Origin: an uncultured Gammaproteobacteria bacterium
GTDB taxonomy: Bacteria > Pseudomonadota > Gammaproteobacteria > Pseudomonadales > Litorivicinaceae
Reading direction: 5' to 3'
DNA: 64,000 nt
Assembly: GCA_913042205.1 (NCBI GenBank)
Contig: CAJWIY010000004.1
Span: 3,911 to 67,910, forward strand
Both the position numbers and the translations under genes were made by a program. This document shows positions 9,208 through 53,163 of the stretch, in pieces (position 1 is the first letter of the stretch; every line of letters begins with the position of its first letter). The notes under the pieces are model-generated. The model saw nothing but the letters and a program-made list of their open reading frames with translations. It was not told the DNA's origin and ran no database searches.

Positions 9208-9214
9208 AGAATTC

Positions 9215-10946: not shown

Positions 10947-10947
10947 A

Positions 10948-14051: not shown

Positions 14052-14068
14052 TAAACGGTTCTCCTGTT

Positions 14069-24035: not shown

Positions 24036-24956
24036 ATGAACCTCATTGACCAGCAGCAGCCATATCGCAATGCGCCATTCGAGGGGGAGCACATCCAGAC
24101 AAAACCCTTGGCAGCTGCCATGGGTGGCGAGGTTCTCGATATTCAGATAGCAGACCTAACTGAAAAGTCTTTCCTCGAGATCGAAAAAGCACTGCACCAT
24201 CACAAAATGATATTTTTTAGGAAGCAATCTTTATCGCTTGCTGACCAGGAGACTTTTACGCTCCGCTTTGGAGAGTTTGGCACTGATGCATACACAAAAG
24301 GAATGACCGGTCATCCAGATATTCAACCGGTAATAAAAGAGGCCTCAACCAAATCAAAGATGATTTTTGGTGGAGGCTGGCACACCGATTCTCCATTTCT
24401 TGCACAGCCCCCTTCAGTGAGCATACTTCATGGCGTAGAAATACCACCATACGGAGGGGACACCATCTGGTACAACTCTGTACTGGCCTACGAGAGCCTC
24501 TCGCCCACCATGAGAAGTATCCTCAGCCCCCTACGTGTCCACATGTCCGCACAAAATGTGATCGGGTCTATGAAAGCTCTTGCGCAAGATTCTCCATCGG
24601 GACCAAAGCTGAGTGATATGGAGTTAGAGCTCGATGTTCAATCAATGCTTGATGGGTCTTACCACCCTTTAATCCGAAAGCATCCCGTTTCTGGTGAGGT
24701 ATCGCTATACTGCGACGCAGTTTACGCGGTTGGCCTCCAGGGAATGACCGACAGAGAATCAAGACCATTACTCGAATTCCTCGTCGCTCACCTGACCCAA
24801 GAAATGTTTAGCTGTCGCTTAAGATGGGAGCCTCATACAGTCGCCGTCTGGGATAACCGTATATGCCTTCATCGAGCATTTAACGATTACGACGGATATC
24901 GAAGAGAAATGCATCGGACCACGGTCAAAGGGGAGACACCCATCGCTGCCTTCTGA
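24036..24956 (+). CDS. TauD/TfdA family Fe(II)/2-oxoglutarate dioxygenase
   Basis: 306 aa. HxD facial-triad motif GGWHTDSPF, distal His in CLHRAFNDY, and GGDTIW. Confidence 0.85.
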   Translation: MNLIDQQQPYRNAPFEGEHIQTKPLAAAMGGEVLDIQIADLTEKSFLEIEKALHHHKMIFFRKQSLSLADQETFTLRFGEFGTDAYTKGMTGHPDIQPVIKEASTKSKMIFGGGWHTDSPFLAQPPSVSILHGVEIPPYGGDTIWYNSVLAYESLSPTMRSILSPLRVHMSAQNVIGSMKALAQDSPSGPKLSDMELELDVQSMLDGSYHPLIRKHPVSGEVSLYCDAVYAVGLQGMTDRESRPLLEFLVAHLTQEMFSCRLRWEPHTVAVWDNRICLHRAFNDYDGYRREMHRTTVKGETPIAAF

Positions 24957-25019: not shown

Positions 25020-25823
25020 CTAATGCTTCCACGACGGATCACTCCGGTCGACCAGCCTCACTAAGGCAGGCCATTCAGGGTGTCTGACCTTCGCACCAGC
25101 TTGAGCCGCCCCACCCTCGAACTGTTCGCGTGTCTTGATCATGACATCCTCTCGAATATAGTTGATCTGGCCCGCGGCCATGGCCCTGAGCTGTACCTCG
25201 GCATTACGGATGAATGCCTGATGCCTGGTCAACGCCCACGCGCAATTTTCACCAGCCGTTAACAATCCATGGTTCTTCAACACCAAGGTATGGTTCTTCT
25301 CTCCCAAGGCCTTGGCAATTAATGGACTCTCCGACCCATCAAGCACGATCCCCTCGTAGTCATGGTAGCCCACCCGCTCGAAGAACTGGCATCCCTCCTG
25401 GGTAAGTGGAATGACCTCGTGATCCAGCGCACAAATAGACTGTGACATAGGTTCATGAGTGTGCAGCACACAGTGCAGATCGTCACGACAACTGTGGACA
25501 GCAGAGTGGATCACATATCCAGCCTGATTCACTGGCCACTCAGATTGTGAAATTGGATTTCCTTCTATATCAATCCGTATGAGATCCGATGCCCTGATTT
25601 CTTCGTACCTCATCCCAAAAGGATTAATCAAGAAATGTGATGTTCCTGGAATACGAAGGGTGATGTGGTTATAAACCACTGATGTCCACCCATAACACGC
25701 GACAATTCGATAGCAAGCCGCTAATTCGAGTCGGGCCTCCCACTCAAGTGGATCCATCCCCTCTGGCGCCGTTGGAACAACTACCTCAAATCGGTCCGAC
25801 ATAACCTGTGTATATGCATTCAT
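25020..25823 (-). CDS. Class II aldolase / adducin N-terminal domain family protein
   Basis: 267 aa. His-rich metal region HSAVH...VLHTHEP. Starts 14 nt after pobA ends. Confidence 0.8.
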   Translation of the reverse strand: MNAYTQVMSDRFEVVVPTAPEGMDPLEWEARLELAACYRIVACYGWTSVVYNHITLRIPGTSHFLINPFGMRYEEIRASDLIRIDIEGNPISQSEWPVNQAGYVIHSAVHSCRDDLHCVLHTHEPMSQSICALDHEVIPLTQEGCQFFERVGYHDYEGIVLDGSESPLIAKALGEKNHTLVLKNHGLLTAGENCAWALTRHQAFIRNAEVQLRAMAAGQINYIREDVMIKTREQFEGGAAQAGAKVRHPEWPALVRLVDRSDPSWKH

Positions 25824-27090: not shown

Positions 27091-28659
27091 TTAACTGGCT
27101 CCGTAGCCTCCTCCACCCGGCGTACCCAATCGAAGAATATCGCCAGGATTCAAGGTGACACCGGACTGCATAGATGCAAGCGTCTTTTTTCTACCCGACA
27201 CCTCGACCTCACAAAATCCACCGCGGGCATCGCCGCCACCATTCATTCCAAGCGGATAGATACCATGCTTACTTGATCGCAAAGTGACCGAAGTAACTCC
27301 TTCGAGTATCCGATACGCCCTGACAAAACCATTTCCACCATCGAATGCTCCGCGGCCCCCTGAGTCTTTCAGGATTTTAAATTCCTCTGTTCTAACCGGA
27401 AATTCTGTCTCCAGCATCTCGACTGATGCAACTTTTCCGTTGGTCTGGTTACAATGACAGCCCGTCTCCCCGGTGTATCCTTGCATTGCACCTACACCAC
27501 CTGCAAACAGTTCATATTGAATGAGTGTCCTCCGATCTAAATCGTGGGCCAAGGTCATGGCTCGACCACCTCCACCGTCTGCCCGAGCGAATTGAGGCAC
27601 ACTCTCGCCAAAAGCCGCAAATATCGACTCAATAATTGCATGTAACGCTGGGTTGTATGTATTAACCGGCGCAGGGAAGTAAGGATCAACAACCGTACCT
27701 TTGCGCGTCTTCAGAGTGAAGCAGTCAAATACTCCCTGATTCACGGGTGTATCGATCCCGGTAATCGCAATCATCACATAGGAACACGCCGCTTTCACCA
27801 GATGTGGTCTTACATTTATTGGCCCAGCGCCCTGTGGGTCTGTCTCTGAAAAATCAAAAGTAATTGATTTACCTATTTTTGTGACCTTGACGCGAATACC
27901 CTTAGGTGTGTCTAGATCAATGCCGTCGTGATCAATAAACCGTTCAGAACATTTTTCGAAATCATCTAGATCTTCTAACCGCCCCTCGATAAGTTGCTGG
28001 GTAGATCTCCTGTGATATTCAAATGCCGAAAATGTCAAATCGATCCCAAATCGATCAAAGAGTTTCTTGACCCGACTTGCCCCTTGATTACAAACCCCGA
28101 TCTGACCCTCCAAGTCTCCAAGGACCAGCTCTGGGCTTCGACTATTACCCCGCAATAGAACAAATGCTTCGCGATTTTTTTTACCAGCACTTATGAGCTT
28201 TACTGGCGGTATGTGGAGACCCTCAAAAAAAGTGTCTTTAGCTGTGGCCGGGCAGCTCCCAGGAGCAGCGCCGCCAATGTCCGGCTTATGTGCGATCGAG
28301 GCCACAAAGCCCACGAGCTGCTCCTCACAAAAGACCGGAACAGCAACGGCAAAATCAGGACTGTGTGGGCTACCACCCTCCCACGGCGAGTTGCTGAGGA
28401 ATACGTCACCGTCTCGTATATCCTCAACAGGGTAACGCGCAAGAATTCCAGAGATAACCGCGGGAAATGCACCGATGTGTATAGGAAGAACCACCTTTTG
28501 CGCGGCCAGCGAACCATCATCCAGCAACACAGCACAGCTAGCGTCGTGACTTTCTCTGATGATTGATGAATAACCTGAACGGAATAAACCAGCTTGCATG
28601 TCATCTACAATTCCACGGGCCATTGATGCGATCATTTCAGCCTCAAATTTAGTCATCAC
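27091..28659 (-). CDS. Hydantoinase B / oxoprolinase family protein (HyuB-like)
   Basis: 522 aa full-length HyuB-type sequence. No adjacent HyuA-type gene. Confidence 0.85.
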   Translation of the reverse strand: MMTKFEAEMIASMARGIVDDMQAGLFRSGYSSIIRESHDASCAVLLDDGSLAAQKVVLPIHIGAFPAVISGILARYPVEDIRDGDVFLSNSPWEGGSPHSPDFAVAVPVFCEEQLVGFVASIAHKPDIGGAAPGSCPATAKDTFFEGLHIPPVKLISAGKKNREAFVLLRGNSRSPELVLGDLEGQIGVCNQGASRVKKLFDRFGIDLTFSAFEYHRRSTQQLIEGRLEDLDDFEKCSERFIDHDGIDLDTPKGIRVKVTKIGKSITFDFSETDPQGAGPINVRPHLVKAACSYVMIAITGIDTPVNQGVFDCFTLKTRKGTVVDPYFPAPVNTYNPALHAIIESIFAAFGESVPQFARADGGGGRAMTLAHDLDRRTLIQYELFAGGVGAMQGYTGETGCHCNQTNGKVASVEMLETEFPVRTEEFKILKDSGGRGAFDGGNGFVRAYRILEGVTSVTLRSSKHGIYPLGMNGGGDARGGFCEVEVSGRKKTLASMQSGVTLNPGDILRLGTPGGGGYGAS

Positions 28660-29418: not shown

Positions 29419-30489
29419 CTATGGGTGCTCTAATTGTGTAAAAATCTCGGTTGGTAAGTCTTGTCCAACCCCAGCAGATAGAGCGAGCCGCATTGTGATT
29501 CCAGCAACGACAGCAAACTGAAGCCCTAACCCAAGATCATTCACGAAACACGTTCGCTCTTGAGCACTGACTCGCCCTTTAACCGCGCCCGAGATCAATT
29601 CTGGAAGCGTTGGACAAGCGGCAAAATCGAATTCATCAGAAATCTCCCAACCACGGCCGCCGGAATGATCAGGAACGATCAGATCGTCGGCCTGCGTTAG
29701 CAACGGCTTCCCATGCCCGACGTGCACACAGACGCTGTCAGCAAGCTGGAGGGCCTGTCTTGAGATTTCAGGGGGCTTAATTGAGCCTACGTGCATGCCC
29801 GCTTCAAAATGTCCGACCTCGAACAATGAATCTATCGAGCTGGTTGCGCACAGAACAATATCAGCTCCCTGAACTGCCTCTACCAAAGAGTCGACAGCGC
29901 AGAAGTTCTGATTAAATTGTTGACTCCAATCGCTACAAAACCGTCCCACATTCTCGGGATTTGGACTGAATACCCTGACTACCTCGACTTCGGGGCGTAC
30001 GGTTAACAACCCCAACAGTTGGGAACCGGCCTGCCAGCCAGATCCAATGATCGCTGCCGTCCGGCTATTAGTTCGCGCCAGATAGCGCGTACCAAGGGCA
30101 CTGGTTGCTCCGACCCGCATTCGCTGAACAACCCCGTCAGGCATTATCGCTAACGGCTCACCTGTTTCAGTTGAGAATACCAAAATCAAACCTGTATAAC
30201 GGGAGCCGGGAGCTGCAGGAACCTTAACCCGGCGGTAGCTATCCCCAACTTTAGGCCAGGTGACGATATCTGAGTTGATCCGCACGGCCCCTACGCCAAG
30301 GCTGGGCGCTATGCCATCCATCGTCTTCAAACCGTAAATAGATTCTCCGCTAGGAACAAGTGTGTCAGAACGTCTTCGGGTGACAGCGACCCCTGACACG
30401 AAATCGAGATAGGCATCTGTCAGGGCATCGATACACTCATCCATGCTGAGGATCTTCGTAATTTCTCGGTTATTTAAAATAAGCGTCAA
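29419..30489 (-). CDS. Ornithine cyclodeaminase / mu-crystallin family protein
   Basis: 356 aa with TTG start. OCD-type N-terminus and Rossmann region (AAIIGSGWQAGSQL). 20-nt overlap with the upstream TauD-like gene. Confidence 0.8.
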   Translation of the reverse strand: MTLILNNREITKILSMDECIDALTDAYLDFVSGVAVTRRRSDTLVPSGESIYGLKTMDGIAPSLGVGAVRINSDIVTWPKVGDSYRRVKVPAAPGSRYTGLILVFSTETGEPLAIMPDGVVQRMRVGATSALGTRYLARTNSRTAAIIGSGWQAGSQLLGLLTVRPEVEVVRVFSPNPENVGRFCSDWSQQFNQNFCAVDSLVEAVQGADIVLCATSSIDSLFEVGHFEAGMHVGSIKPPEISRQALQLADSVCVHVGHGKPLLTQADDLIVPDHSGGRGWEISDEFDFAACPTLPELISGAVKGRVSAQERTCFVNDLGLGLQFAVVAGITMRLALSAGVGQDLPTEIFTQLEHP

Positions 30490-31333
30490 GTTTTTGTCCT
30501 TTGATAATATTCCGGCGCAGCATCCTGGTCTCTCCGGCCGGGAAATCGTTCCGCGCGTGGCATGTCGACCAATTATCCCAAATCACGAGATCACCCTTGG
30601 CCCAACGGTGCGAAAAGGTAGCCTCACTCTGATCGATGGCATCAAACAATAGGTCTAGGAGCCTCTTGTTATCAGACAGATTGGATCCGTCTCCCTCGAG
30701 ACCAACGGTACAGAGCGGGTTAAGATAGAGAGCGGGCCTTTGCGAATTTGGGTGCTTTATCACGCTGGGATGTGTCGCGCTTTTTGCGAGACCGTTGAAG
30801 GTAGCTTGGGTAGGTCGCTCAGCGATATTACGATAGTCAAAGGAGTGGGTTCCTCTCAGATGCTTGATACGACTGATCAGATCATCCGGGAGCGAGCAAA
30901 ATACTGCACGCATATCGACGAACCGGGTCTCACCTCCTACTGAGGTGACTTCAAGGGCATAAAGAATAGTCGCTCGGTATGGTTCGTCTATGAAACATCC
31001 GTCATGATGGAGCCACATCTCACCGTCAGGTAACGAGCCTATCGGGACACCATCCTTACGGACGTTTGTAACCAGGCCCATGTAGTCTGCGTAGGGGGAA
31101 CGCTCAGCGCGGTCGGCTGCGGGCCTCGAGCGTTTCGATGGCTCTCCGAAAACCTTTGCCAGCTCGAGCTGCTGGGATTCGGTCAAATCGAGATCTGGAA
31201 AAACGAGCACCCCGAAACGGTCGAGTGCATCGTTGAGTACTGGCTTATCTGACGCTTGTACATCGTCCACATGAAAACCATCGACGATGGCCCCAAACGC
31301 TGGGGATATCGCCTTGAAGTTGATACTACTCAT
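30470..31333 (-). CDS. TauD/TfdA family Fe(II)/2-oxoglutarate dioxygenase
   Basis: 287 aa. WLHHDGCF (HxD), GGETRF, and distal His in WSTCHARNDF. 4-nt overlap with the bicupin gene. Confidence 0.8.
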   Translation of the reverse strand: MSSINFKAISPAFGAIVDGFHVDDVQASDKPVLNDALDRFGVLVFPDLDLTESQQLELAKVFGEPSKRSRPAADRAERSPYADYMGLVTNVRKDGVPIGSLPDGEMWLHHDGCFIDEPYRATILYALEVTSVGGETRFVDMRAVFCSLPDDLISRIKHLRGTHSFDYRNIAERPTQATFNGLAKSATHPSVIKHPNSQRPALYLNPLCTVGLEGDGSNLSDNKRLLDLLFDAIDQSEATFSHRWAKGDLVIWDNWSTCHARNDFPAGETRMLRRNIIKGQKLDAYFK

Positions 31334-32439
31334 GGGTTAGGTATGAATTTTTCCATCTTTGCATCTACCCCGTTCTTATGCATTTCTTCCAACCAGATAC
31401 GGTGAATCTTAGGATTCTGATCTTCGTATTCGATCTGATCACCACCGTCTTTTAGGCTGGTCGACACTGCACCCTTTTCGCCTGGCTTTATGCCGAGCAG
31501 TGAGCGCCTGTTCGCTGTTGTAAACGGATACCGGGTGCCACCGATCCCTGTAGCGAGATACCGCGCAGGGTTCGTCGATGTATTAAAGTGTTGATGGAAC
31601 TGCTGATCGGCTGGGGGGAATACGACACCGTGTTTCCAATCGACCCTCGTGAAGTCAGGATCACCGTCGTACCAAAGCAAAGAATATCCGTGCCCTGTCA
31701 CACACATGACATGAAATCCTGGACCATGTCGGTGACCTTTTTTGTAGGTCCCAACAGGCATTTCAGATATGTGTGCGTGCATTACCCCGTCAGCAAGAAC
31801 AAACATGATATTGGTCCCACCTGCTCCCCGATCTCCCCACGCACGCAGTTCGATTTCGGCGAGATCTGGAACAAAATTAGTTTCCCACATATGGTTTCCT
31901 TGGCGGATCTCATGGAAATCGCCATCACCGGTAAAATAGCCATCCTTGCCCGCTCTGACCGAAAAATCGTATGGCTGATCGAACACAAACGACTCGTCAT
32001 TAAATAAATTCATCACTGTCGCACAGTTTGTTGTAGCAACAATCAGGGCCCTATCGGTGCCACTTCCATTGAAATGACGATATTTGGCATTTAAAGGGAT
32101 TGCGAACAGACTGCGGGGACCCCATTCGAACAAATGTTTTGACCCATTAGCCAGCTCGACCTGCGTCGATCCGTGCCCTTCCAAAACATAGATCACCTTC
32201 TCAAAGAGATGCTGTTGCACCGCGGTTGATCCGCCTTTGGAAATCTCGAGCAGGAACATGCTCGAAAAATCGCCACGTCCTTTGAGATGAACAGCTGCAC
32301 CATCACAACCAAATCGATTCCACGGCTTGACTGGGACCTCAAATAGATCAATCCCGACATCTTCAACAACAGGAATACCCTCTGCATTTACCCACTCCAA
32401 GTAGGGATCAACACCATACCGGGGCTCACCAACATTCAT
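31330..32439 (-). CDS. Bicupin protein (gentisate 1,2-dioxygenase-like fold), function unknown
   Basis: 369 aa with two cupin barrels. The C-terminal barrel has a full His set (GHRHGPGFHVMCVTGHG ... FHQHFN). The N-terminal barrel is degenerate (QQHLFEKVIYVLEGHG). Confidence 0.7.
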   Translation of the reverse strand: MNVGEPRYGVDPYLEWVNAEGIPVVEDVGIDLFEVPVKPWNRFGCDGAAVHLKGRGDFSSMFLLEISKGGSTAVQQHLFEKVIYVLEGHGSTQVELANGSKHLFEWGPRSLFAIPLNAKYRHFNGSGTDRALIVATTNCATVMNLFNDESFVFDQPYDFSVRAGKDGYFTGDGDFHEIRQGNHMWETNFVPDLAEIELRAWGDRGAGGTNIMFVLADGVMHAHISEMPVGTYKKGHRHGPGFHVMCVTGHGYSLLWYDGDPDFTRVDWKHGVVFPPADQQFHQHFNTSTNPARYLATGIGGTRYPFTTANRRSLLGIKPGEKGAVSTSLKDGGDQIEYEDQNPKIHRIWLEEMHKNGVDAKMEKFIPNP

Positions 32440-32447
32440 AATTCCTC

Positions 32448-33980
32448 CTAGTGCTCTATTTGCTGAGCTGAGTCAAATACTAGCGACTTGATAACCAACG
32501 GAATGACGCCGGGCGGATTAATCATTTCCCCGACATCAATATAATCCAAGTCAGACAAGACGATGCCATCTAACGACAGTAAATAGTCGCCCTTGTTCAA
32601 TTCTTTACTCAATATACGACCCAGTAAACGACCAACGTCTCCGTCAATCACCACGACCAGTGGTGCAGTTCGCTCCGGACAACACAATGCCCCATCGATC
32701 GCGTCGGCTACTGCCTTGAGACGCTGATAACTTGGTTCTCCGCTCCAAGAAAATGCGAGAGCAACGGGACCGTTTTTATCGACATCCCTCATCTGACATG
32801 CATCAATGATCTCCTCAGTAACCAACTCTGATTCAACATCTACTTGGGATAGATCGATGTTTGGGTGGACTACGGGAACGTTCCTCAACGGCAAAAATTT
32901 AAGACTGTTAGAAAAAATCGTCTTACCTGAGACTTGAACAGTGAACTGGGAGGCACCGATCACGGTCGCTCGAATACCGTGTTGTACATCAACAGTAACC
33001 GGGACACCCAGAGCTGCTCTTAGCTGCCGATTTAGTTCGTTTGCTAGATCGTATGAGAGATCGCCCAAGGGTTGGCTCTCTCGTCCATAGATGAATTCAG
33101 ACACGCCACCAGAAAAACTCAACTCCTCCGGAACAACAGACCAAGACAGTGGTTCAGTCAGAAGTAAAGTATCCAAAAGCGAATCGGGCTCAGATCCTGA
33201 AATCACCGACACTAGAACTTCGGCCATGCATACAACGATTTGCTGTCTTTGCGAGTCAGAGATATCAGATACACGGTCAAATACAATTCCCAAATGATTT
33301 GATACTGTTAAGATCGAATCATCACAACGCACCCAATTTCCGCTGTCGTCAGTGGCCATCAGACGCCCACCAATAGCGCACGCAGCTATAGACACTATCG
33401 TCCCTGCATCAATGAGCGCGACCTTTGTCGTGCCACCACCAATATCGACGTGCAGAACCTTTTTTTTGTACCGCTTAGACCGTTCAACAGCCCCAGAACC
33501 GTGTGCGGCCAGAACGCATTCGAGCCGATGTCCGGCCGTCGCGCAAACAAACTTCCCCGCCTGTTCCGCAAACAACTCGTCTATAGACTTGGCGTTGGAC
33601 CGCTTAATCGCTTCACCGGTAAGAATAACCGCACCAGAATCCACATCATGCTTATGCAAGCCAGCGTCAAAATACGCCTGCTCAATAGACCTACCTAAAG
33701 CATCGGCGTCAATGAGTCCGTTGTTTAAGAAGGGTGTAAAGTGGATCGGAGATTGCCACAGGATTTCCCGCTTAATAACTTCGTATCGACTCGAAAGTCC
33801 CTGCGCCCTTCGCTGTAAATGAACCTTCGCAAAGATCAGATGAGACGTTGATGACCCGATATCGATCCCAACCGTGACCAGTTCGATGTGCTCCTGCTCC
33901 CAAATGGAGTCAGCGACGGCTTTCTTGGTCTGGACAGATGGATGATGGTCGTGCCCTTCATGGGCTCTAACTGGGTTCAT
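32448..33980 (-). CDS. EutA-like ASKHA-fold ATPase (ethanolamine ammonia-lyase reactivase family) with His-rich N-terminus
   Basis: 510 aa. VGIDIGSSTSHLIF, DSGAVILTGEA, CATAGHRLECVLAAHGSGA and VDIGGGTTK align with EutA as recalled. N-terminal HEGHDHH is encoded at 33942-33962. Confidence 0.75.
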   Translation of the reverse strand: MNPVRAHEGHDHHPSVQTKKAVADSIWEQEHIELVTVGIDIGSSTSHLIFAKVHLQRRAQGLSSRYEVIKREILWQSPIHFTPFLNNGLIDADALGRSIEQAYFDAGLHKHDVDSGAVILTGEAIKRSNAKSIDELFAEQAGKFVCATAGHRLECVLAAHGSGAVERSKRYKKKVLHVDIGGGTTKVALIDAGTIVSIAACAIGGRLMATDDSGNWVRCDDSILTVSNHLGIVFDRVSDISDSQRQQIVVCMAEVLVSVISGSEPDSLLDTLLLTEPLSWSVVPEELSFSGGVSEFIYGRESQPLGDLSYDLANELNRQLRAALGVPVTVDVQHGIRATVIGASQFTVQVSGKTIFSNSLKFLPLRNVPVVHPNIDLSQVDVESELVTEEIIDACQMRDVDKNGPVALAFSWSGEPSYQRLKAVADAIDGALCCPERTAPLVVVIDGDVGRLLGRILSKELNKGDYLLSLDGIVLSDLDYIDVGEMINPPGVIPLVIKSLVFDSAQQIEH

Positions 33981-33986
33981 AAAAGC

Positions 33987-33998
33987 TTAGGTATCTAA
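33987..33998. promoter_or_regulatory. Palindromic operator-like site TTAGGTATCTAA (CTTAG-N4-CTAA family)
   Basis: Exact 13-mer CTTAGGTATCTAA is shared with 49161-49173. Lies 6 nt upstream of the EutA-like start codon. Confidence 0.5.
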
Positions 33999-34008
33999 CT
34001 AATATAAG

Positions 34009-34039
34009 AAAAAAAACGCCGGCATTACCGGCGCTTTTT
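34009..34039 (-). terminator. Rho-independent terminator after the TTT binding-protein gene
   Basis: All-GC 6-bp stem CGCCGG / CCGGCG (34017-34022 and 34028-34033) with a 5-nt loop. On the minus strand it is followed by T8 (A8 at 34009-34016 on plus); T5 lies on the plus side. Confidence 0.65.
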
Positions 34040-34043
34040 CCAC

Positions 34044-35072
34044 TTACCTGATCGCAGAAATGACTTCTTGAATCACGGCGTCAGGAGTACCGTATGCGGT
34101 ATTCACCAGCCCCGCGACTTCGTCGCCAGAAATCGGAGACAAATCAAACCCACCTTTTTTGGCGTCGGCCAGAAAATCGGGATCACTCATTGTCGCGGTA
34201 AATGCGGCTTTAAGCGCTGCCGCGCGATCAGCAGGCACTCCTGGAGGTGCGACGTAAGGACGTCCAAGACCTTGGCGAGCAAACATCAGGTTAAGCATTT
34301 GGGTCTGCTTTTTCGAGTTGTAGGTTTTGACGAGATCCATAACTAATGGTACGTCTGGGAGCTCAGGATGCGCGACCGTTGACATTTGCATTAGCAGAAC
34401 GAGATCACCACTCGCTAGCAGGTCCTTACTCTTGGATTTGATCGATGACCAAGACCAGCCACAGCGAGCATCGAGCTCACCGGCGATCATAGCTTTCACT
34501 ACATCCTTACCGCCGCCATATGGGCCTACCACCTTGAACTTGGTGTCAAGAACATAGTTAAGCAATTTCGGGAATTGATCGGTATCAGATCCGCTTCCGT
34601 TGCCCCCTGCCAACACTTCCCGGGTCCGCAAATCTTTCCATGACTTGATACCGGTTTTCTTGGTCGTGGCGCAGATAGATACCTCGTTGTTTGCTGACCC
34701 TATCCATTGAAACTTGTCGGCTGAAAACTTTGCCTTCTTGTTTCCGAGTAGTGGCTCAAACGGAACACCTCGTGATACAGCGCCAATCGCAGTACCGTCC
34801 TGAGGGGCACCCTCCCATAGCCAATTGGTGAGCTTAACGCTTCCCGCTCCGGGCATATTCTTTGGAACGATATTTGGATTACCTGGGATATGCTTACCCA
34901 TATGACGAGCAATCAATCGTGCGTAACCATCGTATCCACCGCCTGGCTTGTAACCAATGTAGAGCTCGACGTCTTTTCCTTTATAGAAGTCTGCTACGGC
35001 GTCCGCTAGTACTCCCGCTGAGGCGGTAACACAAGCCAGACCGATCACTGCAGATTGAAGAAGTTTTTTCAT
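34044..35072 (-). CDS. Tripartite tricarboxylate transporter (TTT) substrate-binding protein (TctC / Bug family)
   Basis: 342 aa. Signal peptide MKKLLQSAVIGLACVTASAGVLA. KPGGGYDGYARLIARHMGKHIPGNPNIVPKNMPGAGS is typical of the Bug family. Confidence 0.85.
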   Translation of the reverse strand: MKKLLQSAVIGLACVTASAGVLADAVADFYKGKDVELYIGYKPGGGYDGYARLIARHMGKHIPGNPNIVPKNMPGAGSVKLTNWLWEGAPQDGTAIGAVSRGVPFEPLLGNKKAKFSADKFQWIGSANNEVSICATTKKTGIKSWKDLRTREVLAGGNGSGSDTDQFPKLLNYVLDTKFKVVGPYGGGKDVVKAMIAGELDARCGWSWSSIKSKSKDLLASGDLVLLMQMSTVAHPELPDVPLVMDLVKTYNSKKQTQMLNLMFARQGLGRPYVAPPGVPADRAAALKAAFTATMSDPDFLADAKKGGFDLSPISGDEVAGLVNTAYGTPDAVIQEVISAIR

Positions 35073-35195: not shown

Positions 35196-37223
35196 CTATA
35201 TCGTGGGAATGATTCCTCTGAGTTCGGGGAATATCGCCCTGATTAATGACTCCGGCCAGGCTATATGGAACCCTTGGTCGAATACGAAATAAATCAAACA
35301 ACCAATCACAACGACATACGCTGTCGTCATCCTAAACGACTCATTCCCGCGGACTCGCATGTAACCTATCACAAACAGAGTAGATGCGACCAAGATACCA
35401 CCGACCCACCACGCGAATAGGAAGCCGCAGAGCCACAAAAAAAACTCGAATACCCGGAAGTTATATGATGCGCGGGTGAGACTGCCTAGATCAGACGATA
35501 AATCCAGCGCCGAGCCTTCTGAGTAGCCTTCATTACCTCGTCGAAGAATTGCGTTCGATAGGTTAATCAATATGATCACTAATGTGACGCCGATGATAAC
35601 CTGCGGCGCTCCCTGGGAGTCCTCGTCCCACCCAAATGAGCTGGCTAATGACCAAATCAATAGACCGAGAAGACCAACCGGAAACAGATCAGTCAGCCGA
35701 AACTGTGGCTTAGAAAATGCGAAGATATCGACTTTCTCTTTCTTAATGAAAACCCGAGTAAACAGAGGCTGCAGTAAACTCAGAGCCGCGAGCACAAGCA
35801 TGACAGTGCACACTGGTTTCAGAACCCACGCCCACTCATAGATCTGATAGGAGATCCGCATGTAGTCCTCGACGATCCCACCCAGAACAAATCCTAAAAT
35901 AAGTGGGGGACGAGGCCACTTGAGGTGCTTCATCGTCCAGCCGACGATACCAAAAATCAGTAGCGTAAACAGATCCCCCCAGTCGGCAGACGCTTGATAC
36001 GCACCCACCATCATGATTGAGATGATCGCCGGGATGACTAGCGTGTATCGCAACGTTGCGATCTTAGCGAACTGACCGCTGAAGGCAAAACAGAGCCCGG
36101 CGCCTAGGATATTAGCCAACGCGATTGACCAAACCATAGTGTAGGTCACGTCTAAATTATCAGTCACCATCGACTTGCCCGGGACTAGACCATGAATCAT
36201 GAAGCCGCCCAACAAAAGGGCCATCGACGCTGAACCGGGCACACCAAAAGCGATTGTTGGCACCAGAGATCCACCCTCTTTTGCGTTATTTGCACTCTCA
36301 GGCGCAATGACTCCTCGCACATCTCCCTTTCCAAAAGTCTTATCCGCATCCTTGATCGACTTAGCTGCGTATCCGTAGGCAAACCAATCGACAACAGCCG
36401 AGCCTAGTCCAGGGATGGCTCCGATCATCGCTCCCAGCGATCCACACTTGGCGACAAGCCACCAATTTTTAAATACGTCCCGTAACCCTACTAACATGCC
36501 TTCTTTAAGCTCGTACTTACTCGTGTCAGAGATCGCGGTCCGACGGGCCGCCACGTCACAGATCTCGGGAAGTGCAAACAGTCCGAGTGCCACCGGTAAT
36601 AGAGGTAAGTCATCGACTAAATACAATGTATCGAACGTCCAGCGCTCTTGCCCCGTTTGCGGATCTCCACCGACCATCGACAGCAAGATTCCAAATCCGG
36701 CCATCGATAGCCCACGCAGTGGCATCGAGCCAGATAATGCAGAAACCATCGAAAGGCCAAAAATTGAAAACGCGAGCAATTCTGGCGAATTTATGTGTAG
36801 CAGTATTGGACGGAGCACTGGAATCGTTAAGCCAAGGAGGAATGCACCCCAGAGCCCTCCGATCAGAGACGCGGCATATGCTGCGCTCAAGGCCCTGCCC
36901 GCCTCACCATTTTTTGCCATGCTGTGGCCGTCTAAGACCGTTGCCTGCGAAGCCGATGTTCCAGGAACACCGAAGAGAACTGCTGGGATCGTGTCACTGG
37001 TGGACGTGACCGCTCCCAGACCCAGCATAAACGCAAAGGCTGAATACGCGTCTAAATTGAAAGTGAATGGTAGAAGCAGAGCGAGGCCAGCTACTCCGCC
37101 GACCCCTGGCATAATGCCTAGCGCAAGTCCAATTATGGTGCCCATGCCCAGATAGAAGAGTCGCTCTGGCTCTAACAAAACCGAGAGTGCTGTTATGGCG
37201 ACGTCTAGGAGTGAAGCATCCAT
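35196..37223 (-). CDS. TTT large permease TctA with a C-terminal TctB-like four-helix extension (apparent TctA-TctB fusion)
   Basis: 675 aa, versus about 500 aa for typical TctA. The first 500 aa or so are TctA-like (GIMPGVGGVAGLALLLPFTF). The last 170 aa or so form four extra helices ending in a TctB-like ...FDQGFHIAWPESL. No separate tctB gene is present. Confidence 0.75.
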   Translation of the reverse strand: MDASLLDVAITALSVLLEPERLFYLGMGTIIGLALGIMPGVGGVAGLALLLPFTFNLDAYSAFAFMLGLGAVTSTSDTIPAVLFGVPGTSASQATVLDGHSMAKNGEAGRALSAAYAASLIGGLWGAFLLGLTIPVLRPILLHINSPELLAFSIFGLSMVSALSGSMPLRGLSMAGFGILLSMVGGDPQTGQERWTFDTLYLVDDLPLLPVALGLFALPEICDVAARRTAISDTSKYELKEGMLVGLRDVFKNWWLVAKCGSLGAMIGAIPGLGSAVVDWFAYGYAAKSIKDADKTFGKGDVRGVIAPESANNAKEGGSLVPTIAFGVPGSASMALLLGGFMIHGLVPGKSMVTDNLDVTYTMVWSIALANILGAGLCFAFSGQFAKIATLRYTLVIPAIISIMMVGAYQASADWGDLFTLLIFGIVGWTMKHLKWPRPPLILGFVLGGIVEDYMRISYQIYEWAWVLKPVCTVMLVLAALSLLQPLFTRVFIKKEKVDIFAFSKPQFRLTDLFPVGLLGLLIWSLASSFGWDEDSQGAPQVIIGVTLVIILINLSNAILRRGNEGYSEGSALDLSSDLGSLTRASYNFRVFEFFLWLCGFLFAWWVGGILVASTLFVIGYMRVRGNESFRMTTAYVVVIGCLIYFVFDQGFHIAWPESLIRAIFPELRGIIPTI

Positions 37224-40790: not shown

Positions 40791-41636
40791 TCATTCGAGT
40801 TCGATATCAAGCCCGATATCAAATGTTGAGGCAGACATGGTTATCTGAGAAGACGATATATAATCAACACCGGACTCGGCGATAGCCTTTACGGTGTTGA
40901 GCTTCACACCACCAGAAGCTTCAAGAATAGCCCTATCCTGATTAATAACGACCGCCTCGTGAAGGAGGTCGGTCGAAAAATTGTCTAACAGTATGCAATC
41001 AGCTCCCGATGAGAGCGCTTCCTCGAATTGCTCTAACGTATCGACCTCGATCTCTATCTTCACCAAATGCCCGGCAAATGTCTTCGCGGCCTTGAGCGAC
41101 TTTGTAACACCTCCTGCAACCGCAATATGATTATCCTTAATCAAAATAGCGTCATCCAAACCAAAACGATGGTTAGAACCACCACCGCAACGAACCGCAT
41201 ATTTTTGTGAAGCCCTGAATCCTGGAATAGTCTTCCGGGTGCAGCATATTCTGGCTTTCGTATGGGCGATTTGTGAGACAAACTCAGAAGTCAGAGTCGC
41301 AATTCCAGACAGATGGCACAAAAAATTTAATGCTGTACGTTCTGCCGATAGGATCGATCTCGCGTTACCCGACACTGATGCGATCACGGTACCGGCTGCC
41401 ACTCGAGTACCATCAGGTACCCGTCGCTCAAAATCGAGATGAGGATCTATCCGTTCGAAAGCCTCTGTAGCGTGTGGAAGACCACAGACAAAGCCATTAT
41501 CGCGCGCCACGAATAATGCTGTCGCGAACTTATGAGGTTCAATCGTCGCCTGCGTTGATAGATCACCCGCCCTTCCCAGGTCCTCTAATAATGCCCGCTT
41601 GACCTCTTCTTGTATGAGAACCTTAGGCAAATCCAA
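40791..41636 (-). CDS. nadC: Nicotinate-nucleotide pyrophosphorylase (quinolinate phosphoribosyltransferase)
   Basis: 281 aa with TTG start. LLEDLGRAGDLST, CTRKTIPGFR, GGGSNHRFGLDDAILIKDNH and IEIEVDTLEQ. Confidence 0.85.
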   Translation of the reverse strand: MDLPKVLIQEEVKRALLEDLGRAGDLSTQATIEPHKFATALFVARDNGFVCGLPHATEAFERIDPHLDFERRVPDGTRVAAGTVIASVSGNARSILSAERTALNFLCHLSGIATLTSEFVSQIAHTKARICCTRKTIPGFRASQKYAVRCGGGSNHRFGLDDAILIKDNHIAVAGGVTKSLKAAKTFAGHLVKIEIEVDTLEQFEEALSSGADCILLDNFSTDLLHEAVVINQDRAILEASGGVKLNTVKAIAESGVDYISSSQITMSASTFDIGLDIELE

Positions 41637-41675: not shown

Positions 41676-42836
41676 TTAAATGAAAACCGGCTCTCTCCGC
41701 TTCGCTGAATCTAACACAGCATGGCAAACTTGCAGCGTACCAAGGCACCAATGCCCCGTTTGAACTGGGTCCTTACCCAACCTGATTGAATCGTACAGGG
41801 CCTTAAAGACAGGCTCCCTCGGACCAGCTGTTAAGGGAACTGGGATGACTTCCTTTTCAAAATCTTTGTACACGATTATCTCTCTTGGTCCAATTTTTAG
41901 ATCAGCACGCTCACACTGCACGATCAATGGACCAAAGTGCTCATTATTTGCGGCTGTTCCGCGTAAATTCTTAGCACTAAACGTCCTGCCTCGTTTGGCC
42001 CTTACCTCGTCATCACGTGACAAATCTGCCAACGCTTTTCTGGAGCCTCCATAGTTGTCAGGATCTTTTGGATTTCCAGTCTCTCCGATCCAACCCTGTA
42101 ATTCGTCAGAGTCAAATCTGGCGTATCCCGAGTATGTGCACTGAGCAGTGACCCCATTGCTAAATCTTAGCATCGCCTGATAAGACATCTCTGTATCACG
42201 GAGCCTGTCCCAGCGCCCCGTGTATGCATAGACTTCGGTAACCCGCCCGCCGGCCAGGAGACGGACAACATCGAACTGATGGGCTCCCTGCGAGAACAAT
42301 ACACCTCCACCATCGACTGTACTGAGCTCCTCATCCCGACGTGGTCTGTACATGAAATCGGTGTAGTTGAGGGTATTGATCGCCAAGACCCTCCCAAACT
42401 GATCGCTTTGAATTAGCTGCTTCGCTTTGAGTATAGGTCCATCAAAAGAATGCGCGGGACCCACTATCAAGGTTACTTCATTGATCTCACACGCGGAAAT
42501 CATCCGTTCAGCGTCAGACAAGGAAATCGCAATAGGTTTTTCAACAAGCACATGCTTACCATGTTCGGCTGCCTGCACCGCCATCTCTGCGTGGAGCTGA
42601 TGGGGGGTAGCGATATGAACCGCTTCAATAGACGGGTCGTCAAGCAACTCATCGTAGGAAAGATAGGTGACCCCTTGGAAAATATCTTGAAACGCAGCTC
42701 GTGACTCTTCTCGAGGCGCAGTAGCGGCCAGAAACCGAACAAATTGGCTGACAAGAGCAGATGGCGCTGTTAGCGCAAACCCTCGTCCAAGACCCACAAC
42801 ACCGACTCGAATTGGATCAGTAACCTTCGAAGTCAA
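41676..42836 (-). CDS. Gfo/Idh/MocA oxidoreductase, phthalate 4,5-cis-dihydrodiol dehydrogenase-like (Pht4/OphB type)
   Basis: Rossmann start IRVGVVGLGRGF. TTG at 42836 is preceded by AGGTGAT. The ORF-track start at 42908 would overlap the reductase gene by 92 nt. Confidence 0.75.
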   Translation of the reverse strand: MTSKVTDPIRVGVVGLGRGFALTAPSALVSQFVRFLAATAPREESRAAFQDIFQGVTYLSYDELLDDPSIEAVHIATPHQLHAEMAVQAAEHGKHVLVEKPIAISLSDAERMISACEINEVTLIVGPAHSFDGPILKAKQLIQSDQFGRVLAINTLNYTDFMYRPRRDEELSTVDGGGVLFSQGAHQFDVVRLLAGGRVTEVYAYTGRWDRLRDTEMSYQAMLRFSNGVTAQCTYSGYARFDSDELQGWIGETGNPKDPDNYGGSRKALADLSRDDEVRAKRGRTFSAKNLRGTAANNEHFGPLIVQCERADLKIGPREIIVYKDFEKEVIPVPLTAGPREPVFKALYDSIRLGKDPVQTGHWCLGTLQVCHAVLDSAKRREPVFI

Positions 42837-43770
42837 TCTCGATATCACCTTTTCCGCGGGACACGCACACCATGATCGCCGACTCATATTCATCTGACTC
42901 GAGAACAAAATCGCGGTGCTCTACCGCCCCAGACAACAGCTTCATCTTACAGGATCCACAGGTACCACTCTCACACGAGCTCGGCACCCTTAGACCGTTG
43001 CTCCGCAACGTCTCCAGTATCGTTACGCTCTCATCGACCTTAAACGATTCTCCGGTTGATTTTATAGAAACGGTAAATGGTGCATTTATGTAGTCACGAC
43101 CGCTCTGCGGGTTAAAGTCTTCAAAGTGAATTTGTTGTTCTGGCCAGTGACCGCTCAACGCTTTGATTTCATCCATCAGCGGTCGCGGCCCACAGCAATA
43201 AACGTGGTTCGTATTGGGAATCATGAACTCATCCCAAAAGTCATAAACTTTTTCGGGGTCACCGTCGTCAAAATGAATGACAACACTATCATCAAACAAA
43301 TTCTTCAGATCTTGCCAATAAGCAGCATGTTCCTCTGAGCGCGCGCAATAAATCAGACGAAACGATTTTCCACTAGATTGACAGGATTTCGCCATACCGA
43401 TTAATGGTGTGATACCGATACCCCCTCCGATAAATAGATACCCAGAAGCATCCAACAAAGGAAAGCTATTATCGGGTTGTTGCACCACAACCGTTTGCCC
43501 TACATTCAGCTGTTCATGCAACGATTGAGACCCGCCGCGGGATTGGGGCTCCAACTTTACTGCGATCTGATAGAACGTCGGCTTGTTACCATCGTTAATC
43601 AAGGAATACTGACGATTGGCCCCGCATGGTGTCGCTATTCCTATGTGTGAACCAGGCTGGAAAGGGGGAAGTTCTGATCCATCCCCTGCAACGAATTGGA
43701 ACTCGAGGATGTCCTTCGCCACTTGTTTTTTTTGACTGACCAGTAAGTTAAGTTCGTTGAGCTCGTTCAT
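42817..43770 (-). CDS. Phthalate-dioxygenase-reductase-type oxidoreductase (FMN / NAD / C-terminal 2Fe-2S)
   Basis: 317 aa. RQYSL flavin motif, GGGIGITPL NAD motif, and plant-type ferredoxin CESGTCGSCKMKLL. Colinear with PDR as recalled. Confidence 0.85.
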   Translation of the reverse strand: MNELNELNLLVSQKKQVAKDILEFQFVAGDGSELPPFQPGSHIGIATPCGANRQYSLINDGNKPTFYQIAVKLEPQSRGGSQSLHEQLNVGQTVVVQQPDNSFPLLDASGYLFIGGGIGITPLIGMAKSCQSSGKSFRLIYCARSEEHAAYWQDLKNLFDDSVVIHFDDGDPEKVYDFWDEFMIPNTNHVYCCGPRPLMDEIKALSGHWPEQQIHFEDFNPQSGRDYINAPFTVSIKSTGESFKVDESVTILETLRSNGLRVPSSCESGTCGSCKMKLLSGAVEHRDFVLESDEYESAIMVCVSRGKGDIEIDFEGY

Positions 43771-43867: not shown

Positions 43868-45124
43868 ATGCTGACCCCGGAAGAGAACGAGCTTTTAACA
43901 AAAGTTACCGATGGTGCTCCCATGGAGCGAATCATGCGCAGCCACTGGGTTCCGATCTGCTTAACCGAAGAACTCCCAGAAAACGATGGCACCCCTCTTC
44001 TGATCGAGGTGTTCGGTTGCCGGTACGTGGCTTTCCGTGACACCAATGGGTCGGTCGGGTTACTTGATGAGTTATGTCCTCACCGCCACGCATCCCTGCT
44101 CTATGGCCGAAACGAGAACTGTGGACTGACCTGTCTCTATCATGGTTGGAAATTTGATGTTGATGGCAAATGCATCAGCATGCCCTCCGAGCCGGAGAAT
44201 AGTGATCTGATCACAAAGGTTAAGCACAACGCCTATCAGACACGAGAATGGGGTTCGTTCGTATGGGCATGGCTCGGGGACGAGACTGAGATATCTGAAT
44301 TTCAACCGCCAGCTTTCGCGCCAACAGAAGACACAAGAGTGTCAGTAACGAAAATCCGCATTCCAGCTAATTGGGCCCAAATAATGGAAGGCCAAATCGA
44401 CTCGTCCCATTCCTCGAGTCTCCACTCCTCTGATATGGTGCCCGCGAAGGTTGAAGGCGCGGCGGCGGATGATAAAGCATGGTATCGGCCCTCCACAGAC
44501 CGATCGCCAAGGATGCAGGTAGAGCGGACTGATTACGGATTTCATTACGCAGCCATTCGGCATCCAATCAAGCAACCGGCCTTGAATGAATATTTTCGAG
44601 TCACTGAATACATTGCCCCGTTCACGTGCCTGATTCCGCCAAATTCAAGCTACAACGTCACGACGGTAGTTGTTCCCATCGATGACGAAAATTCAATGTT
44701 CAATTTCATAGCGTGGGGCGGTGAAACTTGTCCCGACACCGACGAGTGGAGAAAATTTAATTACTCGGTGCCTGGAGAGGATCTTGACGAGCGGTGGGTA
44801 TCAAAAAGACAACCACAGAATAAATTCCTACAAGACCGAGAACGGATGAAACAGGGTAACTTCACTGGGGTCCCAGGGATCCCTAACCAAGATATTATTA
44901 TGTGGGTTTCGATGGGCGCGATTGTCGACCGAACCACGGACCGATTAGGGGCGTCTGATATGGCGGTAGTCGAGTTTCGAAAATTAATGGTCGATGCGGC
45001 CAAAACAATGCACACATCAAGTCAAGCTATCGGATCGAGTTCTGATCTCAAACATATTGAAATCAAGTCCTATGAGGGAGTTCACTCAAAAGAGACTGAC
45101 TGGAAGACCCTCTGCAGAAACTAA
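43868..45124 (+). CDS. Rieske non-heme iron oxygenase, phthalate 4,5-dioxygenase family
   Basis: 418 aa. Rieske motif CPHRHASL...CLYHGWKF. Mononuclear iron motif QIDSSHSSSLH. N-terminus (EENELLTKV..APM) is typical of the phthalate family. SD GAGGG is present. Confidence 0.85.
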   Translation: MLTPEENELLTKVTDGAPMERIMRSHWVPICLTEELPENDGTPLLIEVFGCRYVAFRDTNGSVGLLDELCPHRHASLLYGRNENCGLTCLYHGWKFDVDGKCISMPSEPENSDLITKVKHNAYQTREWGSFVWAWLGDETEISEFQPPAFAPTEDTRVSVTKIRIPANWAQIMEGQIDSSHSSSLHSSDMVPAKVEGAAADDKAWYRPSTDRSPRMQVERTDYGFHYAAIRHPIKQPALNEYFRVTEYIAPFTCLIPPNSSYNVTTVVVPIDDENSMFNFIAWGGETCPDTDEWRKFNYSVPGEDLDERWVSKRQPQNKFLQDRERMKQGNFTGVPGIPNQDIIMWVSMGAIVDRTTDRLGASDMAVVEFRKLMVDAAKTMHTSSQAIGSSSDLKHIEIKSYEGVHSKETDWKTLCRN

Positions 45125-53149: not shown

Positions 53150-53163
53150 TCACGTACTCCTAC

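Follow-up and report, generated by a model that had tools for sequence, protein, structure and literature searches.

What does an ATPase of the EutA family do beside a cupin gene, in a stretch of DNA that encodes none of the enzymes EutA is known to serve? EutA is the ATP-dependent reactivase of the adenosylcobalamin-dependent ethanolamine ammonia-lyase, and DdrAB and GdrAB reactivate diol and glycerol dehydratases. The question is raised by a stretch of 64,000 nt from an uncultured gammaproteobacterium of the Litorivicinaceae (hereafter the window, meaning the whole of the DNA that was analysed), where four genes follow each other closely on the minus strand. They encode an EutA-like ATPase (32448-33980, 510 aa), a stand-alone bicupin (31330-32439, 369 aa), a TauD-like protein (30470-31333, 287 aa), and a protein of the ornithine cyclodeaminase (OCD) family, here called OCD1 (29419-30489, 356 aa, with a TTG start). 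A sequence-only reading of the window had taken the four genes as one catabolic system for an imported carboxylate or imino acid. We called open reading frames (ORFs) in the window, searched their proteins with Pfam and NCBIfam profiles, and compared the locus with its relatives in other genomes. The conserved unit is the first two genes only. They form a functionally coupled pair, the cassette, which is unrelated to B12 metabolism and belongs to the catabolism of phthalate-type aromatic o-dicarboxylates. Our tentative reading is that the bicupin is a metalloenzyme with 4,5-dihydroxyphthalate or an analogue as its substrate, and that the EutA-like ATPase matures or reactivates it as a dedicated partner.

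A two-gene cassette unrelated to B12 metabolism

The conservation of the pair was assessed in a census of 80 species-level loci, fetched via the bicupin, whose ORFs were labelled by reference proteins; 73 of them have enough upstream sequence. An intact EutA-like gene lies directly upstream of the bicupin gene, on the same strand, in 67 of these 73 loci according to our script, and in 68 if L066, assigned manually, is included. The distance between the two genes is mostly 8-100 nt. When the search starts from the EutA side, the bicupin adjoins in five of six look-ups, the exception (L093) being next to a transposase. A distant clade, including Phyllobacterium, Sinorhizobium, and the locus L094, has a bicupin that is 45% identical and keeps the pair in inverted order, bicupin first and EutA second. 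The EutA-like gene is fragmented or decayed in three loci (L051, L085, L086), and two others (L059 and L074) have a bicupin gene and no EutA-like gene. We considered a 481-aa ORF upstream of the bicupin in L074 as a substitute partner and rejected it, as it matches no family, overlaps an antisense ORF, and is probably spurious. EutB and EutC gave zero matches (E<=1e-5) within the fetched flanks of more than 85 related loci. The association of the EutA-like and bicupin genes outside any eutBC context, which the sequence-only reading had put forward, is thus well supported by the census. Its extension to a four-gene unit is not, since TauD and OCD1 follow the bicupin in Litorivicinaceae loci alone (L001, L002, and L008-L015, around 10 of 71 loci), and in Litorivicinus these two genes have an ArsC gene between them, encoded on the other strand.

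Within the window, the ORF calls and the junction sequences agree with the earlier description of four coupled genes. The EutA-like and bicupin genes are separated by a spacer of 8 nt (32440-32447, minus strand) with the sequence CACTAGGAGGAATTATG. The stop codon of the EutA-like gene (TAG) sits within a perfect AGGAGG Shine-Dalgarno motif, 5 nt 5' of the ATG of the bicupin, and this overlap shows, at the level of sequence signals, that the translation of the two genes is predicted to be coupled in the window. The bicupin and TauD genes meet in an ATGA junction with an overlap of 4 nt, and the TauD and OCD genes overlap by 20 nt, with the TTG start of the latter inside the former. The window was also said to lack eutBC and other B12-related genes, and this holds: a profile search for EutB and EutC found none in the window even at E<=10, and the Pfam search of its 63 ORFs of at least 150 aa (shadow ORFs excluded) found no B12-dependent enzyme, no shell protein, and no cobalamin gene.

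The EutA-like protein belongs to the EutA family in the broad sense. It matches PF06277 (EutA) with 378 bits, over residues 33-502 and model positions 2-474 of 475, and it is 36% identical to the EutA of E. coli over the full length. Its homologues number in the thousands, at 53-55% identity, and are named "ethanolamine ammonia-lyase reactivating factor" in the databases. Yet, the protein scores below all four NCBIfam equivalog cut-offs for EutA, the best being NF007992 (306 bits vs. a cut-off of 598) and the other three scoring 215-281 bits vs. cut-offs of 769-952. As it neither reaches the equivalog cut-offs nor has eutBC or B12 genes around it, the protein should not be filed as an EutA reactivase, and the name given to the clade is almost certainly wrong.

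The nucleotide-binding core of the EutA-like protein is intact. The motifs of the acetate and sugar kinase/Hsc70/actin (ASKHA) superfamily, DIGSSTSH, DIGGGTT, and SGGVSE, are invariant in 32 homologues with identities down to 53%, and so are the phosphate-1 (D40/G42), phosphate-2 (D179/G181-G183/T184), and adenosine (G291-G292) positions. The AlphaFold2 model (predicted local distance difference test, pLDDT, of 79) has an ASKHA fold, for which Foldseek gave generic ASKHA matches; among solved structures, it comes closest to the HgdC activator ATPase, MreB, EutJ, and PPX/GppA. A sequence search of the PDB with the protein gave nothing informative, as no structure of the EutA family is found there.

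Two features set the clade apart. The first is the N-terminal tail, in which the sequence-only reading had noticed a HEGHDHH tract, encoded at 33942-33962 on the minus strand as it had stated. In the same 32 homologues, H7 and H10 are invariant and H12 is present in at least 90%, and the consensus of the clade is MHDxxFxHEH, mostly from residue 1. Residues 1-17 are disordered in the model (pLDDT below 50). The motif is kept in the distant Phyllobacterium/Sinorhizobium clade and is missing from E. coli EutA; the histidine-rich segment is hence a property of the orthologues and not of this one protein. The second feature is a set of four residues next to the ASKHA phosphate loops: H47, C146, H151, and H177 are invariant in the clade, whereas E. 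coli EutA has Q, V, P, and N at these positions.

The bicupin is more difficult to classify by sequence. The profile check backed the earlier family assignments of the EutA-like, TauD-like, and OCD-like proteins, but the Cupin_2 profile (PF07883) scored only 19.7 bits with the bicupin, under the Pfam cut-off of 27.2, and the fold was established through AlphaFold2 and Foldseek. Many homologues are annotated with PF07883, and those of L074 and L091 reach 34.5 and 31.8 bits. The AlphaFold2 model (pLDDT of 67, predicted template modelling score of 0.73) has two barrels, at residues 24-137 and 209-298. Foldseek returned more than 600 matches at E<=0.001 with bicupins on top, and Mn oxalate decarboxylases as the best matches. 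These matches are generic: besides Mn oxalate decarboxylase, they include MncA, gentisate dioxygenase, quercetinase, and ureidoglycine aminohydrolase, with template modelling (TM) scores around 0.45 and 10-16% identity. No relative of the bicupin was found in the PDB at the sequence level, the oxalate decarboxylase OxdC included; by Foldseek, the identity to OxdC is 11-13%. By inspection, the protein has no signal peptide. Judged from these comparisons, the bicupin is outside every characterised cupin enzyme family.

The residues that are conserved in the bicupin suggest where its metal would sit. In the C-terminal barrel, the histidines H221, H223, H236, H238, H243, H270, H282, and H284 are invariant in both clades, and the canonical cupin metal position shows an H-x-H-x4-H...H arrangement. 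The C-barrel probably holds a histidine-rich mononuclear metal site with four His ligands. The N-terminal barrel lacks the full 3His+Glu site (it has Q75/H77/E80, position 75 being Q or V depending on the clade), and only H51, H77, and E80 are kept there across the two clades. Clustered at 50% identity (E<=1e-30), the family falls into 291 groups, all of around 360-400 aa, the divergent ones being at 33-45% identity. The bicupin of the window is 98% identical to those of metagenome-assembled genomes (MAGs), in line with a marine gammaproteobacterium of the Litoricola/Litorivicinaceae type as its source, and identity remains at 70-75% across thousands of proteins from Alpha- and Gammaproteobacteria, vs. 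the 53-55% of the ATPase over the same range of species. As the bicupin is better conserved and can stand alone, and the ATPase has decayed in some loci, we regard the bicupin as the enzyme and the ATPase as the accessory protein.

Phthalate catabolism around the cassette

Which pathway does the cassette serve? Upstream of the transporter genes that precede it in the window, we found genes for an aldehyde dehydrogenase, a second OCD, NadC, a Gfo/Idh/MocA dehydrogenase, a reductase, and a divergent Rieske oxygenase. The Rieske protein (43868-45124, plus strand) matches the oxygenase of phthalate 4,5-dioxygenase (PDO) from C. testosteroni, PDO_KF1 (PDB 7FJL/7V25/7V28), with 553 bits over the full length, and keeps the iron ligands and the pocket residues S179, S182, R207, R231, R244, F278, and F280. 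Among these, R207 and R244 set the phthalate specificity of PDO_KF1 (PMC8649396). The reductase (42817-43770, minus strand; Pfam FAD_binding_6, NAD_binding_1, and Fer2) is of the phthalate dioxygenase reductase (PDR) type. The dehydrogenase (41676-42908, minus strand) is Pht4, the 4,5-dihydro-4,5-dihydroxyphthalate dehydrogenase, and matches 7WZD, entitled "4,5-dihydroxyphthalate dehydrogenase" in the PDB, with 344 bits over the full length. The NadC gene (quinolinate phosphoribosyltransferase; 40791-41636, minus strand) passes TIGR00078 with 320.6 bits vs. a cut-off of 198.4. An extra nadC is a classic accessory of phthalate operons, where phthalate mimics quinolinate (PMC6051330, citing Chang & Zylstra 1999).

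The window also encodes Pht5, the 4,5-dihydroxyphthalate decarboxylase, of which there is an orthologue (51269-52258, plus strand; 411 bits to the annotated pht5 of Marinibacterium) in a TauE-MarR-SDR-Pht5 operon, and a family paralogue (48112-49098, minus strand) that is 34% identical to Pht5. Fifteen kb away from the cassette, positions 8329-14959 encode, judged from the genes assigned there, a complete pathway for the 4,5-cleavage of protocatechuate. It consists of LigB (14069-14959), a LigC-like protein (Gfo+OxRdtase_C, 13095-14051), a DUF1932 protein (12084-12974), two LigI/LigJ-like Amidohydro_2 proteins (10948-11964 and 8329-9207), an RraA-like aldolase resembling LigK (10269-10946), and a LigU-like PrpF protein (9215-10276). 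PobA is encoded in the window as well. Going by these assignments, the cassette lies in the middle of an island that would lead from phthalate to protocatechuate and on to meta-cleavage.

The same genes accompany the cassette elsewhere. PDO and PDR are each found in 30 of 71 loci, Pht4 and NadC in 28, and MarR in 26, and a typical operon can be written as PDO | PDR-Pht4-MarR-EutA-like-bicupin | NadC. Terripilifer ovatus H3SJ34-1 (L036) is a case in point, and has no Pht5 within 10 kb. Further recurrent partners are TPP-dependent decarboxylase-like, HIBADH-like, Pht5-family, class-II-aldolase-like, and arylmalonate-decarboxylase-like proteins. The context in the window and in the census is thus one of phthalate-type aromatic o-dicarboxylates, and not the imino-acid or simple carboxylate context that had been suggested from the sequence. 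We also considered the catabolism of homarine or of other N-heterocycles, which NadC, OCD, and TauD might suggest. This idea was dropped, as the part that NadC is known to play in phthalate operons accounts better for its presence; in addition, the published homABCDER operon encodes quite different proteins.

All 30 cassette-linked PDOs share every pocket residue with the canonical, Pht5-linked PDOs of roseobacters. Because of this identity, the product of PDO and Pht4 in cassette operons should be 4,5-dihydroxyphthalate, the substrate of Pht5. Yet, in 24 of the 30 PDO loci with the cassette, the 10 kb on either side contain no gene of the Pht5 family, whereas at least 35 of the 40 listed PDO plasmids that lack the cassette carry Pht5 within around 10 kb of PDO. 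The contrast is strong, with a Fisher p of 1.4e-8, and of 2.3e-8 when plasmids are counted by genus. This bicupin was found on none of the PDO-carrying plasmids, and the only four plasmid matches belong to the distant clade.

A few other observations concern these genes. In PDO_KF1, the pocket residue F339 pi-stacks on phthalate; in its place, the PDO of the window has Ile, and so do all other alphaproteobacterial and marine PDOs that we examined (Val in two), including the canonical Pht5-linked ones of roseobacters. These lineages may prefer a slightly different substrate. The Pht5 family resembles periplasmic binding proteins, has no Pfam match, and goes under the name "ABC transporter substrate-binding protein" in the Prokaryotic Genome Annotation Pipeline. 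Paralogues of Pht5 with 34-44% identity are frequent beside the cassette, in loci without PDO too. A three-gene module recurs beside phthalate genes and cassette, and encodes a small Rieske protein (around 121 aa), a hypothetical protein (around 100-136 aa), and an Amidohydro_2 protein (around 411 aa); it was found in L089 (16784-18694), L093 (10937-12984), and L095 (9844-11758), and might be another aromatic decarboxylase system. In six Beijerinckiaceae-type loci, a gene of the arylmalonate decarboxylase/Asp-Glu racemase type (PF17645, 65.6 bits; 11245-12054 in L060) lies directly 3' of the bicupin; two TctC genes come next, and then an operon HIBADH-HyuB-HyuA in divergent orientation.

The genes directly upstream of the cassette encode a tripartite tricarboxylate transporter (TTT). 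The solute-binding protein is TctC-like (34044-35072, minus strand), with a full-length match of 26.4 bits to PF03401, slightly under the cut-off of 27, and its orthologue in L001 is annotated as TctC. The permease is a fusion of TctA and TctB (35196-37223, minus strand; 410 bits to PF01970, and 21.5 bits to TctB at the C-terminus). Components of TTT systems flank or enclose the cassette in 39 of the 80 loci, and in other lineages the cassette is found between tctB and tctC. The gap of 63 nt between tctC and the EutA-like gene (33981-34043) is mostly taken up by a hairpin that resembles an intrinsic terminator (34009-34041, minus strand) and comes directly after the tctC stop; its stem is GC-rich, and T8 follows. 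The sequence-only reading had described a palindrome at this position as shared with other sites. We found its core in a single copy, at no other site in the window, and it reads as the terminator of tctC. A simple scan of 33981-34043 found no sigma-70-like promoter, and the cassette operon may be expressed through partial read-through from the TTT genes.

The TauD-like protein, of the TauD/TfdA family of Fe(II)/2-oxoglutarate dioxygenases, matches PF02668 with 187 bits over the full length, passes no NCBIfam equivalog cut-off, and has the HxD...H facial triad, in the segments LHHDGCF and STCHARND. It is one of three TauD/TfdA paralogues in the window (24036-24956, 30470-31333, and 61271-62167), and all three stay below the NCBIfam equivalog cut-offs that we tested. 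OCD1, of the OCD/mu-crystallin family of NAD(P) enzymes, matches PF02423 with 96.5 bits and stays far under the cut-offs of all 13 NCBIfam models; its best PDB match is the delta1-pyrroline-2-carboxylate reductase 6T3E (107 bits). Elsewhere in the window are two class-II-aldolase-like genes (25020-25823 and 60474-61274), two Rieske oxygenases of the LigXa_C type (43868-45124, which is PDO, and 56102-57388), and two adjacent monocupins (52574-53730). A HyuB (Hydantoinase_B) gene (27091-28659) heads a HyuB-PobA-class II aldolase operon that has no adjacent HyuA, as is also the case in L008-L013. The sole HyuA of the window (62174-63886) is 33 kb away, runs past the end of the window, and has a TauD paralogue after it where HyuB would be expected. 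Such a split or re-partnered HyuA/HyuB system is unusual. The possibility that this unpaired HyuB works with the EutA-like protein was rejected, since the HyuB of Beijerinckiaceae has its own HyuA.

What the two proteins may do

The functional coupling of the pair and its place in phthalate-type catabolism leave several ways to assign the chemistry. In the reading that we tentatively prefer, the bicupin would be the catalyst and would convert 4,5-dihydroxyphthalate or a close analogue. Decarboxylation to protocatechuate would be the simplest fit, as it would make the operons without Pht5 self-sufficient. This chemistry is suggested because the top Foldseek matches of the bicupin are Mn oxalate decarboxylases. 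EutA and DdrAB use ATP to remove a damaged cofactor from their partner enzyme and replace it; in a similar way, the EutA-like protein would spend ATP to load, exchange, or re-activate the metal centre of the bicupin. We assign it the part of a helper because the only known activity of its family is ATP-driven cofactor exchange on a partner enzyme, because its tail of histidines and acidic residues is flexible, and because it is dispensable or decayed in a few lineages. In the window, where the TTT importer, TauD, and OCD1 accompany the cassette, it would probably handle a related, imported substrate alongside the Pht5 route, and its product would feed the same protocatechuate 4,5-cleavage pathway.

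Several points weigh against this assignment. It is not obvious why a non-oxidative decarboxylase should need ATP. The structural likeness of the bicupin to known enzymes is generic (TM around 0.45) and its model is of moderate quality (pLDDT of 67). No natural fusion of EutA-like protein and bicupin occurs among the best 150 representatives, the longest match having 554 aa. Most loci of the census come from MAGs, and those that combine the cassette with PDO are phylogenetically clustered in Hyphomicrobiales. Pht5 could be encoded elsewhere in the 24 genomes in which it seemed to be missing, as our view extends to 10 kb on each side. A Pht5-family gene stands next to the cassette in 19 of the 80 loci, 13 without PDO and six with it, and such neighbours fit the sequential action of the two systems at least as well as the replacement of one by the other. 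The window itself holds both: its cassette cannot be a simple replacement of Pht5, given that an orthologue and a paralogue of Pht5 are present, and the complementarity holds across loci only. Finally, Marinobacter, Pseudomonas sp. SST3, and many other loci have a TTT-EutA-like-bicupin-TctC-OCD arrangement without PDO. In these loci, PDO and Pht4 encoded in the vicinity cannot be the source of the substrate, and the loci show that the substrate of the cassette can also be imported directly. The decarboxylase-like neighbours lead us to speculate that such substrates are aromatic polycarboxylates. With these points taken into account, a helper ATPase for the adjacent cupin remains, on our analysis, what we would consider the most economical reading, and our checks turned up none of the observations that the sequence-only reading had named as refuting it.

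The two proteins could instead be the subunits of one ATP-dependent enzyme, where the EutA-like protein phosphorylates or otherwise activates a carboxylate or an enolate, after which the metal site of the bicupin would carry the reaction to its end. The outcome would be an ATP-driven transformation of the ring or of a carboxyl group of an imported o-dicarboxylate, comparable to those of HyuA/HyuB and acetone carboxylase. The intact, invariant nucleotide motifs of the ATPase are in line with this idea, and a 1:1 complex is what one would expect of genes that are strictly adjacent and translationally coupled. Residues H47, C146, H151, and H177, being beside the phosphate loops, could form a catalytic site for a metal or a substrate. 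Moreover, the pair is the sole conserved enzyme content of the TTT-EutA-like-bicupin-TctC operons, and genes of the HyuA/HyuB type recur in the same islands. However, an obligate subunit sits badly with the bicupins of L059 and L074, which have no ATPase, and with the fragmented ATPase genes of three loci. Compared with the bicupin, the ATPase also evolves much faster, a pattern more expected for a helper than for a co-catalyst, and its flexible histidine tail suits the handling of metals better than the phosphorylation of substrates. To our knowledge, the sole function of PF06277 that is known biochemically is to act on a partner protein, not on a small molecule. We regard the two-subunit enzyme as unlikely, although it is the main rival of the preferred reading.

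Another way to read the bicupin is as an Fe(II)-containing dioxygenase, ring-cleaving or dependent on O2 in another way, whose substrate would be 4,5-dihydroxyphthalate or a different hydroxylated aromatic acid, with the EutA-like protein rescuing the form inactivated to Fe(III), as ferredoxins of the XylT type do for catechol 2,3-dioxygenases. Gentisate 1,2-dioxygenase and quercetinase, which are ring-cleaving bicupins, are among the Foldseek matches (TM of 0.44 for the gentisate dioxygenase GDOsp), and metal sites made of histidines only are typical of cupin dioxygenases. The NCBIfam model of 5-aminosalicylate 1,2-dioxygenase (NF049978) matches the bicupin weakly and partially, with 16.9 bits vs. 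a cut-off of 650. The Pht5-family genes beside the cassette would fit a decarboxylation followed by ring cleavage, and the island is rich in oxygenases. At the level of families, however, the bicupin matched none of the gentisate, 1-hydroxy-2-naphthoate, and 5-aminosalicylate 1,2-dioxygenases, and it has no significant sequence similarity to the characterised dioxygenase families. Ring cleavage in the window is already provided for by LigB-type and extradiol dioxygenases. In the PDO-PDR-Pht4-MarR-cassette-NadC operons, a dioxygenase would give an unusual polycarboxylated product, for which there are no obvious downstream genes. Ring cleavage by the bicupin thus seems rather improbable to us.

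The original proposal of a self-contained four-gene system, for an imino acid or an aliphatic carboxylate taken up by the TTT transporter, fares worse. The tight coupling of the four genes in the window and in its closest relatives (L008-L013) speaks for it, as do the OCD-family genes that follow the cassette in TTT loci of Gammaproteobacteria. Against this, TauD and OCD1 are confined to about 10 of 71 loci, all from Litorivicinaceae, and even there the four genes are interrupted by ArsC in Litorivicinus. The dominant partners of the cassette are the phthalate genes, NadC, MarR, Pht5-like genes, and TPP enzymes, and the window as a whole is an aromatic-acid island, which makes such a system very unlikely. 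Lastly, that the protein is an ordinary EutA, reactivating a B12 enzyme encoded elsewhere and standing next to the bicupin by chance, is hardly credible in spite of the full-length Pfam match, the 36% identity to E. coli EutA, and the database name, since the adjacency is kept in about 95% of loci across Alpha-, Gamma-, and Deltaproteobacteria and through an inversion of gene order, eutBC is in none of the loci examined, every equivalog cut-off is missed about twofold or more, and the His/Cys residues and N-terminal motif of the clade are foreign to E. coli EutA.

Known systems and the place of the cassette

How does a helper ATPase for a cupin compare with what is known? The EutA-like protein shares with EutA the full-length Pfam family, the intact ASKHA motifs, and a gene that adjoins that of a presumed specific partner enzyme. 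It differs from it in having a bicupin and no B12 enzyme as neighbour, in an aerobic aromatic catabolism instead of an eut microcompartment, and in the M-H-D..H-E-H tail and the residues H47, C146, H151, and H177, none of which are found in E. coli EutA. Dedicated helpers encoded beside a metalloenzyme and endowed with a flexible, histidine-rich tail bring to mind HypA/HypB and UreE/UreG for nickel, HscA for Fe-S clusters, and XylT. The N-terminal M-H-D/E of the EutA-like protein is, we presume, reminiscent of the MHE nickel site of HypA. HscA, an Hsp70 protein, is an example of an ASKHA ATPase that serves cofactor delivery. The dedicated metal-insertion NTPases that we know of are GTPases of the G3E family, not ASKHA ATPases of the EutA type. 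HyuA/HyuB, oxoprolinase, and acetone carboxylase also combine an ASKHA subunit with a metal-containing catalytic subunit, and such genes are present in the same islands, but their ASKHA subunit is of the Hydantoinase_A subfamily and not EutA, and the partner is HyuB and not a cupin.

On the side of the cupin, the bicupin has the two-barrel architecture and a length similar to those of OxdC and MncA, and a histidine-rich cupin site that would be metallated in the cytoplasm. It shares only 11-14% identity with them (TM around 0.45), lacks the full 3His+Glu site in its N-barrel, and adds to the H-x-H-x4-H...H of its C-barrel four more invariant histidines. We know of no dedicated ATPase partner for OxdC or MncA, nor of a dedicated ATP-dependent helper described for any cupin metalloenzyme. 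In terms of pathway, the cassette operons hold the orthologous PDO, PDR, Pht4, MarR, and NadC of the canonical pht/oph clusters. The latter have Pht5 and no cassette, whereas the cassette also occurs in TTT operons that lack PDO. A full-text search, whose coverage leaves out most subscription journals, retrieved no published work that links EutA homologues with cupins, phthalate, or contexts other than B12.

In our view, what is new in the cassette is the class of partner: an ATPase of the reactivase type is paired with a cupin, within a pathway that is already known. The clade counts thousands of sequences, and it would extend the ATPases of this type beyond B12 enzymes. The correct metal loading of cupins is a recognised problem, of which MncA is the textbook case, and a helper that is genetically obligate would make the question directly testable. 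Phthalate degradation is a model pollutant pathway, and many environmental phthalate operons, in Beijerinckiaceae, Xanthobacteraceae, and Hyphomicrobiales, appear to carry the cassette in place of the canonical decarboxylase. Because of this, pathway predictions in metagenomes that require pht5 would under-count phthalate degraders. The links with TTT systems, TPP decarboxylases, and decarboxylases of the Pht5-like and class-II-aldolase-like types hint that natural aromatic polycarboxylates are broken down in this way, both in the ocean and in soil. It is possible, if doubtful, that this clade of the EutA family was re-purposed from the repair of B12 enzymes and is the first ATP-driven ASKHA metallochaperone or reactivase for a mononuclear-metal cupin, and that the two proteins together are an alternative to Pht5 for the conversion of 4,5-dihydroxyphthalate and related natural aromatic polycarboxylates. 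If so, such a system would be spread over soil and marine Proteobacteria, in several hundred species at the least.

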